Virus record (IMG/VR): IMGVR_UViG_648276652_000010
Location: 1 to 4,714 of that record
Direction: 5' to 3' (one strand)
Source: a virus
Lineage: Duplodnaviria > Heunggongvirae > Uroviricota > Caudoviricetes
DNA: 4,714 nt
Position 1 is the first letter of the stretch, and the number at the start of each line of letters is the position of its first letter. Shown here in pieces: positions 1-4,714 of this stretch. The position numbers and the translations under genes were made by a program. Below the pieces are notes generated by a model. The model was given only the letters and a program-made list of their open reading frames with translations, searched no databases and was not told the DNA's origin.

Positions 1-232
<232 letters not shown>

Positions 233-263
233 CTGTTATTTATGCCAAAAATAAAGGCCACTA

Positions 264-464
264 TCAGGCAGCTTTGTTGTTCTGTTTACCAAGTTCTCTG
301 GCAATCATTGCCGTCGTTCGTATTGCCCATTTATCGACATATTTCCCATCTTCCATTACAGGAAACATTTCTTCAGGCTTAACCATGCATTCCGATTGCA
401 GCTTGCATCCATTGCATCGCTTGAATTGTCCACACCATTGATTTTTATCAATAGTCGTAGTCAT
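264..464 (-). CDS. ral: Ral restriction-alleviation protein (66 aa)
   Basis: ATG at 464 (minus). Product MTTTIDKNQWCGQFKRCNGCKLQSEC... matches my recollection of lambda Ral in sequence and length. It sits in the expected place downstream of N in the PL operon. Confidence 0.75.
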   Translation of the reverse strand: MTTTIDKNQWCGQFKRCNGCKLQSECMVKPEEMFPVMEDGKYVDKWAIRTTAMIARELGKQNNKAA

Positions 465-534
465 ACGGATAGTCCTGGTATTGTTCCATCACATCCTGCG
501 GATGCTCTTCGAACTCTTCAAATTCTTCTTCCAT
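448..534 (-). CDS. orf28-like acidic 28-aa peptide (MEEEFEEFEEHPQDVMEQYQDYPYDYDY)
   Basis: Not in the ORF track (too short). ATG at 534 is preceded by GAGGTG (revcomp of 539..544) at 4-nt spacing. Its stop TGA (448..450) overlaps the ral start by 17 bp, the same arrangement I recall for lambda orf28/ral. Confidence 0.5.
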   Translation of the reverse strand: MEEEFEEFEEHPQDVMEQYQDYPYDYDY

Positions 535-542
535 ACATCACC

Positions 543-707
543 TCAAATAAGTGGTTTGCTGCGAAAATAAATACGCTCCCACCAAGTTCCGTATCTATCT
601 ATCCAGTTACACCAATCATCGACACTCCATTTTGTTGTGTCGCATTTTGGCAATTGACATGAATATCTACCTTCTTTGTAAAGTCGGCGTTTGACTTTCT
701 TGAGCAT
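543..707 (-). CDS. Hypothetical small protein (54 aa; MLKKVKRRLYKEGRYSCQLPKCDTTKWSVDDWCNWIDRYGTWWERIYFRSKPLI)
   Basis: ATG at 705..707 (minus) is preceded by GAGGT at 5-nt spacing. The longer 74-aa track ORF begins with GTG at 767 and has no RBS. The stop overlaps the orf28 RBS. Trp/Cys-rich with no recognisable family. It occupies the interval where lambda has sieB. Confidence 0.35.
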   Translation of the reverse strand: MLKKVKRRLYKEGRYSCQLPKCDTTKWSVDDWCNWIDRYGTWWERIYFRSKPLI

Positions 708-770
708 GACTACCTCAATCGTAATAAGCTGGAATTGATTTTCCGCGTTGTTTCTGGCGACCAACACAAG

Positions 771-1154
771 TCACCTTGCTGTCAGTTGTTTTGATTTCCT
801 GTAGCCTGCCGCGTAAAGAGCTACATTTGGAAGACATACACCAGTTTCTGGTTGCCTATGCCCAAACTCATTCGCGTACACAATGGCCGCTCTCTCCAGA
901 TTGCGTCTGTATTCTTTCTGTTGCCAGATCACGTCCTGTGCCATGAACTTAATTGGCTTAGCGTCTTCTATGCGCTCAGGCGTTTCGTGAGTACCTTTAG
1001 CCTGAATCTGCGCTCTGCTTAGAGTAGGGCGGTGTAATACTTCTGAACTTATTGCTTCTTCGCGGGCCAGTACGCCGTTAGCTAATGCCTTTGCCTTTAA
1101 ACGCTCACGACGACGAGAACGTGAATTGCCTTTGAACTGAGTTCTGCGTGTCAT
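771..1154 (-). CDS. N: N-type transcription antiterminator, P22 gp24-like (127 aa)
   Basis: ATG at 1154 with AGGAGG 6 nt upstream. N-terminal arginine-rich motif NSRSRRRERLKAKALANG. The C-terminus ...LPNVALYAAGYRKSKQLTAR resembles the recalled P22 N terminus (...VALYAAGHRKSKQITAR). Lies directly downstream of PL and nutL. Confidence 0.7.
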   Translation of the reverse strand: MTRRTQFKGNSRSRRRERLKAKALANGVLAREEAISSEVLHRPTLSRAQIQAKGTHETPERIEDAKPIKFMAQDVIWQQKEYRRNLERAAIVYANEFGHRQPETGVCLPNVALYAAGYRKSKQLTAR

Positions 1155-1319
1155 ATAGACCTCCTGATGAACTTTGGTGGTGTGGTAGGTGGGAGACCCA
1201 TTTCGACCTGTTTCGGCCTACTTCAATTCGGCAATAGTCCCGCAGGCCTCGCCGCTTTACGTGCGACATATTCCCGTCCATGAACCCTTCACCACACCCC
1301 AAAGTTCACTTTGGTTATT

Positions 1320-1334
1320 GCGCTTTGTCAGCGC
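1320..1334 (-). promoter_or_regulatory. nutL boxB hairpin (GCGCUGACAAAGCGC, GACAA pentaloop, P22 type)
   Basis: Minus-strand sequence GCGCTGACAAAGCGC forms a 5-bp stem with loop GACAA, in the PL leader about 165 nt upstream of the N start. No canonical boxA (CGCTCTTTA) is visible upstream. Confidence 0.5.
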
Positions 1335-1402
1335 CGTAGATTCATATTCGAATCGTTGTATATTCACCGCCCTGGTGAGTAGTGCGTCCTGCTGATGTGT
1401 TT

Positions 1403-1465
1403 AGTATCACCGCCAGTGGTATTTATGTCAACACCGCCAGAGATAATTTATCACCGCAGATGGTT
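1403..1465 (-). promoter_or_regulatory. PL promoter with operators OL1 (1405..1421), OL2 (1429..1445) and OL3 (1449..1465)
   Basis: The three 17-bp sites tatcaccgccagtggta, caacaccgccagagata and tatcaccgcagatggtt match lambda OL1/OL2/OL3 as I recall them. Minus-strand -35 TTGACA is at 1426..1431 and -10 GATACT at 1403..1408, with a 17-bp spacer. Confidence 0.85.
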
Positions 1466-1610
1466 ATCTGTATGTTTTTATATAGATTTATTTTTTGCAG
1501 GGGTGTGTGGCTTGGGAGGTGATCGAGAGATCTGAATTGCGATGTTTAGTGAGTTGTATCTATTAATTTTCAAATAAATACAATTGGTTATGTGTTTTGG
1601 GGCGAACGTG

Positions 1611-1650
1611 AGGCAAAGAAAACCCGGCGCGGTGGCCGGGTTTATTTATT
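1611..1650. terminator. Intrinsic terminator hairpin, potentially bidirectional; t_imm-like end of the cI operon
   Basis: Stem cccggc (1623..1628) pairs with gccggg (1635..1640) around a 6-nt loop. The minus strand follows it with TTTTCTTTG and the plus strand with TTTATTTATT. It sits immediately 3' of the stop of the last cassette gene and before OL. Confidence 0.5.
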
Positions 1651-2296
1651 GCTTAGGAGCTTGTTGTGATGACGATTGGTTAGTTGGAGCGCTCGTTAAT
1701 GGTTGCTGTGTCGGTACCTGTATTATAATTGGAGCCGGGCTGGTTACTGATGGTGACTTGTCATTGCCGGAGATAATCCAACTTGAGGCTAACATCACGC
1801 CAGACAGAATCACAGTAACTAAAGTCAAGCCAACGGCCATCGCCCACTGAGTCGTTGTAAGTCCCGTTTTCAAACCGCCGATTTCACCTTTAATTTCAGC
1901 AATACCTCTCTCAATAGAAGAAAATTGCTGAGTATAATAGGTTTTAAAGTCAGCTGATTCGCGACGCATTTCCGCAGCAATAGACTCTACCTCTGATTTG
2001 TTTTGTGAAAGCTTTGCGTCAAGTTCTTCTCTGGACATTCCGCTCACGCTTACCTCCAGGGTATCACTCTTCATCGCTACATCTTCCTTACTTGGGCGCA
2101 AACCCGTTTCGTCCATGGCGTATGAAACTCTATTTGATACCTTAGCATCAATACCAATACTTTGGTACTGAGATGGATCCCCATAAGGAGAAACGGTTGT
2201 CGCTGCTAGGGTTGCACTAACTATAATACTTGGAAGAACTGATGATGTTGTTCCTGAGGTAGGTTGAACTGAAGAAACTGGCTTCAGTCTTTCCAT
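1646..2296 (-). CDS. Hypothetical membrane-anchored protein (216 aa): Ser/Thr-rich N-terminal region, central predicted coiled coil, one C-terminal TM helix, Ser/Pro/Gln-rich tail
   Basis: ATG at 2296 overlaps the stop of the upstream gene (ATGGAAAGACTGA), suggesting translational coupling. An alternative internal start at 2072..2074 has a strong AAGGAAG RBS and would give 142 aa. Hydrophobic segment AMAVGLTLVTVILSGVMLASSWII. Stop TAA at 1646..1648 abuts the terminator hairpin. Confidence 0.6.
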   Translation of the reverse strand: MERLKPVSSVQPTSGTTSSVLPSIIVSATLAATTVSPYGDPSQYQSIGIDAKVSNRVSYAMDETGLRPSKEDVAMKSDTLEVSVSGMSREELDAKLSQNKSEVESIAAEMRRESADFKTYYTQQFSSIERGIAEIKGEIGGLKTGLTTTQWAMAVGLTLVTVILSGVMLASSWIISGNDKSPSVTSPAPIIIQVPTQQPLTSAPTNQSSSQQAPKQ

Positions 2297-2550
2297 AGCC
2301 CATTATCCCTGAGAGCTACCTGTAATGATTTTACTAATGCAACAGCTTGATCCGGGCTCATTGAGACTGACATGTTAGGGGTCAACTCAACTTTTACTTG
2401 GAAGCTATTCTTTCCTTGCTCATCAGACTGCATGTGATGCTCAAATTCATGGCGGTAAAAAGTAATGATTGTTTCAGCACGATCAGGCGTAATAAGAACT
2501 GATGTGGCGGTCATGTGCTGAGGTATGATTTTAATAGTGTTATCTGACAT
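2284..2550 (-). CDS. Hypothetical soluble protein (88 aa; MSDNTIKIIPQHMTATSVLITPDRAETIITFYRHEFEHHMQ...)
   Basis: ATG at 2548..2550 (minus) is preceded by AAAGGA at about 6-nt spacing. The track ORF extends to an ATG at 2691 (135 aa), but that start has no Shine-Dalgarno. No recognisable family. The 3' end overlaps the next gene. Confidence 0.5.
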   Translation of the reverse strand: MSDNTIKIIPQHMTATSVLITPDRAETIITFYRHEFEHHMQSDEQGKNSFQVKVELTPNMSVSMSPDQAVALVKSLQVALRDNGLWKD

Positions 2551-2742
2551 AAGTATCCTTTTTGTTTCCTTAGTATTTTTTTGCATTGACATCAGAAATA
2601 GCGAATCCACAAGAGTATGAGTAAAGCTAATCAGTTTAGTGATACGGTGACTATTAAAGTGGTAAACCACATCAAAGCTCGCAGAGTGCATACCAGGCTG
2701 TCACACATGACAAAGTAACGAGGATGCCTGATCTCATAGCGC

Positions 2743-2898
2743 TCAAAGAGACATGCCGATAATGGCATTAACCACGCATGACGCCATAAACACGCCGCCA
2801 ACGATGAAGCTGGCTTGGTTCTTCCTGGTAGCGCCAAGAGTCAACAGAACCACTGAAAGGGCAAAAAAAGGTATCGCGATTATGCTGAACGTGTTCAT
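2743..2898 (-). CDS. Small membrane protein (51 aa; MNTFSIIAIPFFALSVVLLTLGATRKNQASFIVGGVFMASCVVNAIIGMSL), two predicted TM helices
   Basis: Not in the ORF track. ATG at 2896..2898 (minus) with GAGG at 5-nt spacing. Two hydrophobic stretches are separated by a basic loop, RKNQ. First gene after cI on the same strand, 77 bp downstream of the cI stop. Confidence 0.45.
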   Translation of the reverse strand: MNTFSIIAIPFFALSVVLLTLGATRKNQASFIVGGVFMASCVVNAIIGMSL

Positions 2899-2975
2899 GT
2901 TGACCTCAACTTATTTCGATTCTCCATCACCCTTAATCCGCCGCCCCATGTGTTTGTTGTGATTCGTTGCTGGCC

Positions 2976-3692
<717 letters not shown>

Positions 3693-3695
3693 TTA

Positions 3696-3765
3696 AATCT
3701 ATCACCGCAAGGGATAAATATCTAACACCGTGCGTGTTGACTATTTTACCTCTAGCGGTGATAAT
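3696..3765. promoter_or_regulatory. OR3 (3700..3716), OR2 (3723..3739), OR1 (3747..3763) with divergent promoters PRM and PR
   Basis: tatcaccgcaagggata and taacaccgtgcgtgttg match lambda OR3 and OR2. OR1 reads tacctctAgcggtgata, against lambda tacctctGgcggtgata as I recall it. PR -35 ttgact is at 3737..3742 and -10 gataat at 3760..3765. PRM hexamers lie on the minus strand at 3719..3724 and 3696..3701. Confidence 0.9.
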
Positions 3766-3780
3766 GGTTGCATGTACTAA

Positions 3781-3990
<210 letters not shown>

Positions 3991-3997
3991 GTAACAC

Positions 3998-4043
3998 CGC
4001 TATTTTCACAATGGACATTCGTCCTACGTCGCTGACAAAGCGA
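3998..4043 (+). promoter_or_regulatory. nutR: boxA-like cgctattttcaca (3999..4011) and boxB hairpin ucgcuGACAAagcga (4029..4043)
   Basis: The boxB has a 5-bp stem and GACAA loop, the same loop as the nutL boxB. It lies between cro and cII on the PR transcript. The pentamer CTACG precedes both boxB copies. Confidence 0.45.
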
Positions 4044-4128
4044 GTCCCAATATATCTGACCAACTAAGGCCATATGCGTTTCCACGCATACCTTTCAACT
4101 AGCTATTCACTATTGGAAATCATAAGAA

Positions 4129-4425
4129 ATGGAACAAACAAGTTACAGCAAACTATCCCAGCGTGACGTTGATCGCGCAGAAACAGATTTACTCATCAAC
4201 CTGTCAACGCTTACCCAGCGCGGTCTGGCAAAGATGATTGGCTGTCATGAATCGAAGATAAGCAGAACGGACTGGAGATTTATTGCTTCAGTCTTGTGTG
4301 CTTTCGGAATGGCATCAGACATCAGTCCGATTAGTAGAGCTTTTAAGTATGCGCTTGATGGAATCACAAAGAAAAAATCCCCGGTGGCCGCCGGGGACTC
4401 TAAGCAAATTGATATGCAATTCTGA
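4129..4425 (+). CDS. cII: CII-like transcriptional activator (98 aa), divergent from lambda CII except at the C-terminus
   Basis: In the lambda cII position. The HTH-like segment GLAKMIGCHESKISRTDW and the C-terminal ...KKKSPVAAGDSKQIDMQF parallel lambda ...NKKRPAATERSEQIQMEF. The 32-nt spacing to the O start matches lambda. Confidence 0.7.
   Translation: MEQTSYSKLSQRDVDRAETDLLINLSTLTQRGLAKMIGCHESKISRTDWRFIASVLCAFGMASDISPISRAFKYALDGITKKKSPVAAGDSKQIDMQF
4372..4397 (-). terminator. t_oop-like intrinsic terminator embedded in the 3' end of cII
   Basis: Minus strand reads GTCCCCGGCGGCCACCGGGGATTTTTTC: a 7-bp GC stem (4378..4384 with 4391..4397), 6-nt loop and a run of six T. Same position relative to the cII stop as lambda t_oop. 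Confidence 0.6.
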
Positions 4426-4448
4426 GGGAATTACTGGATCAATCAACA
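4372..4448 (-). ncRNA. oop: oop-like antisense RNA (about 77 nt), 5' end inferred by analogy to lambda
   Basis: The 3' end is defined by the terminator above. The 5' end is placed by lambda spacing only. The expected pO -35 would fall inside the IS629-like insertion. Confidence 0.35.
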
Positions 4449-4461
4449 GGAGTCATTATGA
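4446..4461 (+). pseudogene. O: Replication initiator O: RBS and start codon only, interrupted by IS insertion
   Basis: caggagtcattATGA matches the lambda O translation start. From 4459 the sequence is the IS left end rather than O codons. Confidence 0.5.
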
Positions 4462-4714
4462 ACCGCCCCGGGAATCCTGGAGACTAAACTCCCTGAGAAA
4501 GAGGTAAACAGAATGACTAAAAATACTCGTTTTTCCCCCGAAGTCCGTCAGAGGGCGATTCGTATGGTTCTGGAAAGTCAGGGCGAATATGACTCACAGT
4601 GGGCGGCAATTTGTTCCATTGCCCCAAAGATTGGCTGTACACCGGAGACTCTGCGTGTCTGGGTACGCCAGCATGAGCGGGATACCGGAGGCGGTGATGG
4701 CGGGCTCACCACCG
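4459..4714 (+). mobile_element. IS3-family insertion sequence (IS629/IS3411-like), left inverted repeat and 5' part; continues beyond the window
   Basis: TGAACCGCCCCGGGAATCCTGGAGACTAAACT at 4459 matches the IS629 left end as I recall it, followed by orfA with an AGAGG RBS. Confidence 0.8.
4513..4714 (+). CDS. IS3-family transposase OrfA (HTH, InsE-like), 3' partial
   Basis: [67 protein letters not shown]... is the characteristic IS629-type OrfA N-terminus. The frame is open to the window end. Confidence 0.85.

Follow-up and report, generated by a model that had tools for sequence, protein, structure and literature searches.

The Cassette Between cI and the Terminator Timm

We analyzed a 4,714-bp stretch of viral DNA (Caudoviricetes; IMG/VR record IMGVR_UViG_648276652_000010, positions 1 to 4,714; hereafter the window), which is a lambdoid prophage immunity region. 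Between the repressor gene cI and the leftward operator OL lies a cassette of three genes on the minus strand: p51 (positions 2743–2898), encoding a small membrane protein of 51 amino acids (aa), gp49 (2284–2550), encoding a soluble protein of 88 aa, and gp48 (1646–2296), encoding a protein of 216 aa. The end of gp49 overlaps the start of gp48 by 13 nucleotides (nt; 2284–2296). The original prediction, made from the letters of the window without database searches, had described three co-oriented open reading frames (ORFs) over 1646–2898 with these sizes and this overlap, and all of its coordinates hold. The chromosome of Escherichia coli MS 119-7 is 100% identical to the window over positions 1500–2975.

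Homology to phage lambda covers positions 1364–1642 (OL to the terminator Timm) and 2980–4004 (cI to cro), with none between. As lambda homology is lost only across 1643–2979, the cassette sits exactly in the slot where lambda carries rexB-rexA, which had been proposed from the gene order and could now be placed to the nucleotide: a segment of 1,337 bp (1643–2979, minus strand) stands in place of lambda positions 35,827–37,230. The left junction (1642/1643) is common to the phages HK542, CL707 and HK106, whose records were deposited by the authors of a study, from 2007, of lambda-immunity phages isolated from the wild. The right-hand homology begins again at position 2980 for HK542, 2967 for CL707 and 2925 for HK106.

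The cassette ends at an intrinsic terminator hairpin of the Timm type (1620–1643, both directions), with a GC-rich stem of 9 bp and a loop of 6 nt, that begins 2 nt past the gp48 stop codon. As minus-strand RNA the hairpin has a folding energy of -18.9 kcal/mol (z = -4.0), and 0 of 200 shuffled sequences folded equally well; on the 3' side of the hairpin this RNA reads UUUUCUUUG. The hairpin is homologous to that of lambda and to the hairpins annotated as Timm in HK542, HK106 and CL707, in agreement with the terminator expected at this end of the cassette. The same hairpin is found downstream of the gp48 homologues in Kosakonia and Klebsiella.

At the other end, the cassette follows cI (2976–3689, minus strand), which encodes a repressor of 237 aa of the lambda immunity type, annotated as a LexA-family repressor and 97.7% identical to lambda at the nucleotide level. 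It is presumed to be the first gene of the PRM operon. A scan of the cassette gave no consensus-like and no pLit-like internal promoter, and the only internal terminator-like site in the direction of the cassette is a weak 5-bp hairpin inside p51 (2753–2768); one further weak terminator-like site was reported on the opposite strand. With no such promoter found and only this weak hairpin, read-through from PRM is the natural expectation, and by homology to lambda we infer a transcript from PRM (and PRE) that runs from cI to Timm.

An untranslated spacer of 192 nt (2551–2742, minus strand) separates p51 from gp49 and forms the junction of two modules. The searches gave no consensus-like sigma-70 promoter, terminator-like site or Rfam match in it, and no RNA family of Rfam matched anywhere in the window. 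The spacer holds a perfect palindrome, TGTCA-TGTG-TGACA (2705–2718, minus strand), approximately 25 nt downstream of the p51 stop codon, which was scored as neither terminator nor promoter.

Identity and Distribution of the Cassette

The cassette is 99.7% identical over 1,476 nt to the DNA of phage HK97, in which the two larger genes encode Gp48 and Gp49 (NP_037733 and NP_037734). These were deposited in GenBank in 2000 with no function assigned, and HK97 places them likewise between cI and OL. The cassette therefore shares both DNA and position with the HK97 genes, and differs from the HK97 records in that these omit p51. An uncharacterised three-gene cassette, as the original prediction had it, is correct in that no function is on record for any of the genes; as to novelty and unity it has to be amended, since gp48 and gp49 have been known from HK97 since 2000 and p51 is separable from them (see below).

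Copies of the cassette also occur in HK225, in Lambdavirus PDP110P1 and in 52 complete E. coli genomes out of 5,426. The p51 stretch likewise occurs in 52 E. coli genomes, and the equal counts would fit a nearly clonal block whose parts travel together. Identical E. coli cassettes (98–100% nucleotide identity) stand behind four different repressors, namely the lambda-type cI, a hybrid cI whose DNA-binding domain differs, a repressor of 139 aa consisting of a helix-turn-helix (HTH) domain only, and the 258-aa repressor of HK225, which the HK225 record labels as similar to the CI repressor of E. coli DH10B. The cassette has moved intact, as a unit, between these four immunity types. In HK225, approximately 25 nt from the 3' end of a lambda-type cI persist between the cassette and the phage's own, unrelated repressor gene (4366–4390 of the HK225 locus), and this remnant looks like the scar of an origin of the cassette from a phage with lambda immunity.

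None of the three proteins had a significant match in Pfam, NCBIfam or PADLOC. Among the PHROGs, gp48 and gp49 match only families without a known function, and p51 matches none.

Predicted Structure of gp48 and gp49

The gp48 protein (100% identity to HK97 Gp48 by tblastn; PHROG 5820, E = 9.6e-69) is predicted to be a tail-anchored coiled-coil protein of the inner membrane. Residues 1–88 (2033–2296, minus strand, as for all parts of the gene) are variable, of low complexity and predicted to be disordered (predicted local distance difference test, pLDDT, approximately 40). Residues 89–142 (1871–2032) form a long helix, presumed to be a coiled coil, in the AlphaFold2 model (pLDDT 85–90). This helix is the most conserved part of the protein family described below, with the consensus SREELDAKLxxNKAEVxAxAAxMRxEM, and E91, A94, L96 and E102 are nearly invariant among 94 family members. 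A single C-terminal transmembrane helix is predicted at residues 147–177 (1766–1858) by AlphaFold2 and at 150–177 by hydropathy; in a Kyte-Doolittle analysis with 19-residue windows and a cut-off of 1.6, windows above the cut-off occurred only at 150–159. Q150, ahead of the membrane helix, is nearly invariant in the family. The protein ends in a short tail rich in Pro, Gln and Ser (residues 178–216; 1649–1765), predicted by AlphaFold2 to be disordered, in which the motif PIIIQVP is kept in the homologues of E. coli, Yersinia and Kosakonia. Because gp48 has no N-terminal signal sequence, the tail would lie in the periplasm, and the N-terminus and the coiled coil in the cytoplasm.

We considered the hydrophobic residues 20–37 as a possible signal or membrane segment but do not favor this, as the segment stays below the hydropathy cut-off, is not helical in the AlphaFold2 model and has no counterpart in the other partner classes described below. 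The AlphaFold2 model of gp48 (from 9 sequences) had a pLDDT of 51.7 and was confident for the coiled coil only, and that of gp49 (from 3 sequences; pLDDT 47.4) was unusable. Fold searches with these weak models gave nothing meaningful, the best E being 0.23 for the viral library and 7.9 for the Protein Data Bank (PDB). Searching the PDB sequences with the gp48 family profile returned generic coiled coils only.

A comparable layout, in which one C-terminal membrane helix comes after a coiled coil, is found in the CCDC90-like/DUF1640 family (PF07798). The score of gp48 against this family (12.6 bits) missed the gathering threshold of 33.5. Among its 94 relatives 21 matched PF07798 at E ≤ 1e-3, and Baculo_PEP_C was matched even more often. 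The DUF1640 matches behave as generic coiled-coil similarity, below threshold for gp48, and the Pfam scan of the 94 family members as a whole gave generic coiled-coil families only. Two further candidates, XhlA and YqjD/ElaB (DUF883), were dropped, as neither is found among the Pfam matches of gp48 or of the 94 relatives.

The gp49 protein corresponds to HK97 Gp49 (PHROG 26809, E = 2.7e-62) and has no hydrophobic segment by hydropathy analysis. Its 88-aa start codon (position 2550) is preceded, at a distance of 5 nt, by the Shine-Dalgarno sequence AAGGA. The start used for a protein of 102 aa in RefSeq/PGAP annotations of E. coli and in HK225 (position 2592) lacks a Shine-Dalgarno sequence and lies 14 codons too early. 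The Klebsiella homologue of gp49 (66% identity) is exactly 88 aa long.

The gp48 Family and Its Exchangeable Partners

An exhaustive profile search identified 203 representatives of the gp48 family at E ≤ 1e-3, of which 107 remained at E ≤ 1e-10, in comparison to 11 relatives only by a word-indexed search. The representatives stem from clustering at 50% identity and are mostly 130–270 aa in length. Only the beginning of the coiled coil, the membrane helix with its preceding Gln and the short Pro-rich tail are conserved, and the first 60–100 residues vary. All occurrences that we found lie in prophage or viral contexts.

We examined the gene neighborhood at 28 loci, comprising 22 divergent viral loci and those of Yersinia, Kosakonia, Klebsiella, Xenorhabdus, HK542 and the window. 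An ORF of 84–165 aa lies directly upstream of the gp48-type gene at every one of them (28 of 28); in most loci it overlaps or abuts the gp48-type start, and the gap never exceeds 39 nt. By sequence, the partners can be sorted into at least six classes that show no detectable similarity to one another; these include the gp49 type (class A), a type with a zinc-ribbon pattern CxxC...CxxC (class B) and the 144-aa type of HK542c105 (class E). DUF3467 was considered as an identity for gp49 and for the partners of classes C and D, and was set aside because Pfam does not list it for any of 18 partners at E ≤ 1.

The variable N-terminus of the gp48-type protein follows the partner class. Similarity between N-termini was detected for 28 pairs within partner classes and for 0 pairs between classes, although many of the loci are closely related, so that the count of 28 overstates the number of independent observations. 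This co-variation is the pattern that would be expected if the partner binds the N-terminus of gp48. Judged by these comparisons, gp49 and gp48 are a conserved unit in which the partners are obligate but exchangeable.

The pair usually follows a prophage repressor. Eighteen distinct proteins are encoded just upstream of it: 8 are repressors with HTH and S24 domains, approximately 5 are HTH-only repressors of the CI type, 1 is an Arc/Mnt-type repressor and 1 a KilA-N/Rha protein, and the rest, in Xenorhabdus-type phages, are secreted proteins. In the Xenorhabdus-type phages the pair adjoins an arc/antirepressor region.

The arrangement of a small gene upstream that overlaps a downstream gene, here by 13 nt, is typical of type II toxin-antitoxin loci, and gp49-gp48 could accordingly be read as an addiction pair that would keep the prophage or the cassette stable and have no role dedicated to defence against phages, with gp48 as a membrane toxin and gp49 as its antitoxin. 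The joint variation of partner class and N-terminus is what cognate pairs show, and a true toxin-antitoxin system, hicAB, occupies the same slot in HK106. However, Pfam, NCBIfam and PADLOC gave no homology of the cassette proteins to toxin or antitoxin families, and the operon is common with the repressor rather than autoregulated. We consider an addiction function quite unlikely, and note that toxin-antitoxin function and defence are not mutually exclusive in current understanding.

p51, a Small Membrane Protein Missing From the Annotation

Hydropathy analysis of p51 (minus strand) predicts two hydrophobic helices with a TRKN loop between them, and a Shine-Dalgarno sequence, GAGGT (2903–2907, minus strand), is located 4 nt upstream of the ATG. 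Hydropathy and AlphaFold2 together agree with the protein types first proposed for the cassette, a two-helix protein of 51 aa, a soluble protein of 88 aa and a C-terminally anchored protein of 216 aa. The p51 gene is missing from the GenBank and RefSeq records of HK97, from the record of HK225 and from the RefSeq E. coli records that we examined; in the HK225 record, ORFs on the opposite strand are called over it instead.

Homologues of p51 form 35 clusters, with members in Atlantibacter, Lelliottia, Raoultella, Kosakonia, Klebsiella and Enterobacter. Nearly all are exactly 51 aa long, at 67–98% identity, and 11 residues are invariant in the family. Compared with the Atlantibacter homologue, p51 shows 8, 4 and 26 differences at codon positions 1, 2 and 3, respectively, corresponding to 20 synonymous and 9 non-synonymous codon changes, and the nucleotide homology between the two ends exactly at the start and stop codons (edge at 2743). 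On this pattern of substitution, p51 is to be regarded as a real gene under purifying selection. Together with the homologues of gp48 and gp49 in other genera, the codon-position bias of p51 and the exact homology edges indicate that the ORFs of the cassette are more than chance.

The p51 homologues are stand-alone genes in ordinary chromosomal neighborhoods, for instance beside pmrD and a LysE-family gene or beside the RIO1 kinase and yceI genes; one adjoins a phage tail-tip gene. In Klebsiella michiganensis the gp49-gp48 pair directly follows the repressor without p51, and the other class A loci have no ORF of at least 45 aa between repressor and partner. Given stand-alone p51 homologues and pairs without p51, the cassette is not one obligate three-gene system. 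p51 would rather be a second, independent module, captured from or shared with enterobacterial chromosomes.

Two observations concern the surroundings of these genes. In 3 assemblies, the Atlantibacter homologue of p51 (4001–4156 of the locus) precedes pmrD by approximately 420 nt, on the same strand. In Yersinia intermedia, two paralogous-looking proteins of approximately 133 aa (3746–4691 of the locus), each with an N-terminal membrane helix, are encoded between the repressor and the pair, as further variable membrane cargo at the operon position of p51.

Chromosomal homologues of p51, such as the one beside pmrD in Atlantibacter, would also be in keeping with lysogenic conversion unrelated to phages (tolerance of envelope stress, colonisation or virulence), of which bor and lom are examples, or with modulation of the phage's own lysis-lysogeny switch. 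The coiled coil and C-terminal anchor of gp48 recall host tail-anchored stress proteins, an analogy of architecture only. The genes would be co-transcribed with cI, and RexA is reported to bias the lambda switch (bioRxiv 10.1101/2021.04.19.439022). Against such a role, the hypervariable partner classes look more like an arms race than like housekeeping, and the gp48 family is confined in our searches to prophages and viruses. We regard conversion or switch modulation as unlikely.

Exclusion of superinfecting phages at the entry step is known from HK97 gp15, P22 SieA and T4 Imm. HK97 gp15 is a small inner-membrane superinfection exclusion protein whose chromosomal homologues, YebO, are found outside prophages (PMC3594210). 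p51 parallels gp15/YebO in being a small, predicted inner-membrane protein of the same phage with chromosomal homologues, thought to be made in the lysogen. It differs in that gp15 is encoded in the tail operon and p51 in the immunity operon, and Pfam listed no YebO-type family for p51 up to an E-value of 1.

By this precedent the cassette might block superinfection at DNA entry and not through abortive infection, with the gp48 tail, p51 or both stopping incoming genomes at the inner membrane. Both proteins are predicted to reside in the inner membrane and would be made in the lysogen, and the PIIIQVP tail of gp48 is kept across genera. Most of the conserved machinery around gp48 (coiled coil, partner and variable N-terminus) is nevertheless predicted to be cytoplasmic, for which a block at entry offers no ready explanation, and SieA showed no homology to the gp48 family profile (E = 0.26). 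A block at entry seems to us to have a rather low probability.

Other Occupants of the Slot and Relation to Known Systems

The region between the repressor gene and N is described as a common mosaic moron site for accessory loci (PMC7067206, citing Degnan et al. 2007), and a variable cargo slot at this place is established, published knowledge. A comparison with other lambdoid phages, of the kind suggested along with the prediction of an exclusion or abortive-infection module, found several kinds of cargo between the same flanks. Lambda itself carries RexA/RexB, CL707 carries BstA (PADLOC, E = 1.3e-105), and HK106 and mEp234 carry hicA-hicB plus one more ORF; a gp48-family pair is found in HK97, and a different one is common to HK542 and HK244. 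Two of these five cargo types (RexAB and BstA) are experimentally established abortive-infection systems, and one of the five is a toxin-antitoxin pair. The CL707 slot gene (2643–3548 of the CL707 locus) had been deposited as a hypothetical protein and is a clear homologue of the BstA abortive-infection protein.

The segment behaves as exchangeable cargo. A moron in the sense of Juhala et al. (2000) is additional DNA that brings a promoter and a terminator of its own and deviates in GC content. The cassette does end in a terminator, but this is Timm, which the other phages share; the scan gave no promoter belonging to the cassette, and the GC content of 37–50% shows no clear difference from the flanks.

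A close parallel in the slot is the c105-c104 pair of HK542 and HK244. Here c104 belongs to the gp48 family (28% identity by tblastn; profile E = 1.1e-56) and its start overlaps the upstream partner by 4 nt. The partner is an unrelated protein of 144 aa (class E), the N-terminus of c104 is different, and there is no p51 gene.

The likeness to the Rex system of lambda consists of the identical slot and flanks, an operon that would run from PRM and cI to Timm, and the combination of a cytoplasmic and a membrane protein. Rex excludes T4 rII and other phages by depolarising the membrane. RexA has 279 aa, however, compared with 88 aa for gp49. RexB has several hydrophobic segments (four according to the literature); gp48 has a single helix, at the C-terminus behind its long coiled coil, and p51 has two. 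The PADLOC models of RexA and RexB match none of the three proteins, and BLASTP gave E > 1; in control runs the same models recovered lambda RexA (9e-110) and lambda RexB (8.6e-61), and CL707 BstA was recovered likewise (1.3e-105). As the homology tests failed for both RexA and RexB, the cassette is not a Rex system. That none of the proteins resembles RexA/RexB or any characterised family had been part of the original prediction, and is borne out by Pfam, NCBIfam, PADLOC, the PDB and the fold searches.

BstA of the Salmonella phage BTP1 is a prophage defence gene that directly follows the repressor and is co-transcribed with it (PMC7067206). Its homologue CL707c04 occupies the same slot as the cassette. 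BstA is a single cytoplasmic protein of approximately 300 aa, and the PADLOC profile of BstA gave no match among the cassette proteins.

The Surrounding Prophage

To the right of cI, the operator OR with PR and PRM lies between cro (3790–3990) and cI, and cII (4129–4425) follows. An element of the IS3 family with a programmed frameshift (approximately 4433–4714) is located directly after cII and splits it from the replication genes. To the left of the cassette lie OL, of which OL3 ends at 1465 by annotation transfer from HK106, and PL (hexamers at 1431–1403). Further left, N (771–1154, minus strand) is an intact antiterminator ORF of 127 aa (PHROG 271, E = 3.8e-38) with 99% nucleotide identity to HK106, followed by ral (264–464) and, left of ral, by the 3' end of IS100 with istB (1–229).

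RefSeq gives at N just a 69-nt pseudogene, labeled 'incomplete antitermination protein', at the 3' end of the ORF. A small ORF between N and ral (543–767, minus strand) matches PHROGs 1871 and 24953, both of unknown function. The left arm of HK106, which is otherwise near-identical, is without the stretch 563–750.

The prophage is probably defective, interrupted by two insertion sequence (IS) elements, with its immunity operon intact. Breakage by IS100 on the left and by the IS3-family element after cII would suit a reading of the cassette genes as decaying or functionless passengers. The cassette is, however, intact in the viable phages HK97 and HK225 and was exchanged intact between the four immunity types, its ORFs are conserved as proteins across genera, and p51 bears the signature of purifying selection. 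This conservation largely refutes the passenger reading, which we consider very improbable.

A Proposed Anti-Phage Role

The position of the cassette is what makes an anti-phage role plausible. By analogy with the other occupants of the slot, we propose that the cassette is cargo of the prophage immunity operon and an anti-phage module expressed in the lysogen, composed of a partner and a membrane effector; we favor this reading tentatively, at somewhat short of an even chance. Transcription from PRM, and from PRE while lysogeny is being established, would pass through cI, p51, gp49 and gp48 to Timm, so that all three cassette proteins would be made in the lysogen. gp48 would oligomerise through its coiled coil and serve as the effector acting on the membrane. 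gp49, a small cytoplasmic protein whose translation would be coupled to that of gp48, may bind the variable gp48 N-terminus and would be the exchangeable subunit that keeps gp48 inactive or senses infection. An infecting phage would disturb the contact between gp49 and gp48, upon which gp48 would compromise the membrane. The outcome would be abortive infection or exclusion resembling that of Rex, brought about by unrelated proteins.

Several points weigh against this proposal. PADLOC gave no homology of the cassette proteins to known defence proteins, and our literature search found no published study of the cassette genes, which are not discussed in papers on the RexA structure, on lambdoid mosaicism or on the svsR small RNA. 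The slot also holds toxin-antitoxin and unknown genes, and Rex has roles outside defence, which makes the argument from location weak. The two structure models carry low confidence (pLDDT 51.7 for gp48 and 47.4 for gp49). With one membrane helix in gp48, the formation of a pore or channel would be purely conjectural. The count behind the co-variation of partner and N-terminus includes close relatives and does not consist of independent observations. Finally, Rho-dependent polarity in the 192-nt spacer could lower the expression of gp49 and gp48.

A more far-reaching form of the proposal, to which we give a doubtful standing, is that the gp48 family is an undescribed class of repressor-linked, two-gene anti-phage systems in which exchangeable sensors are mounted on a fixed effector, and that HK97 p51 has an exclusion activity of its own. 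The class would comprise approximately 200 clusters in prophages of Enterobacterales, and at least six unrelated sensors or regulators might, as a similarly speculative part of this view, dock on the disordered N-terminus.

The nucleotide sequence, as HK97 gp48/gp49, and the variable slot were known already. What is new is that the cassette is composite, that p51 had gone unannotated, how large the gp48 family is, that its partners are obligate yet exchangeable and that it is linked to repressors. HK97 is a standard laboratory phage, yet it carries two repressor-adjacent genes without an assigned function and a third, p51, that had escaped annotation. For p51 our results amount to a small annotation correction that applies to HK97, HK225 and approximately 1% of complete E. 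coli genomes.

As judged by analogy with its slot, the cassette is repressor-linked prophage cargo that may well act in defence. As abortive-infection systems (RexAB and BstA) are proven to reside in this slot, a recurrent, modular and uncharacterised occupant is a good candidate for a new defence mechanism. If the cassette should turn out to be unrelated to defence, it would caution against inferring function from location in a prophage cargo slot. The combination of a constant membrane protein, an exchangeable partner and a co-varying N-terminus leads to a concrete hypothesis of how specificity may be encoded in the gp48 family.

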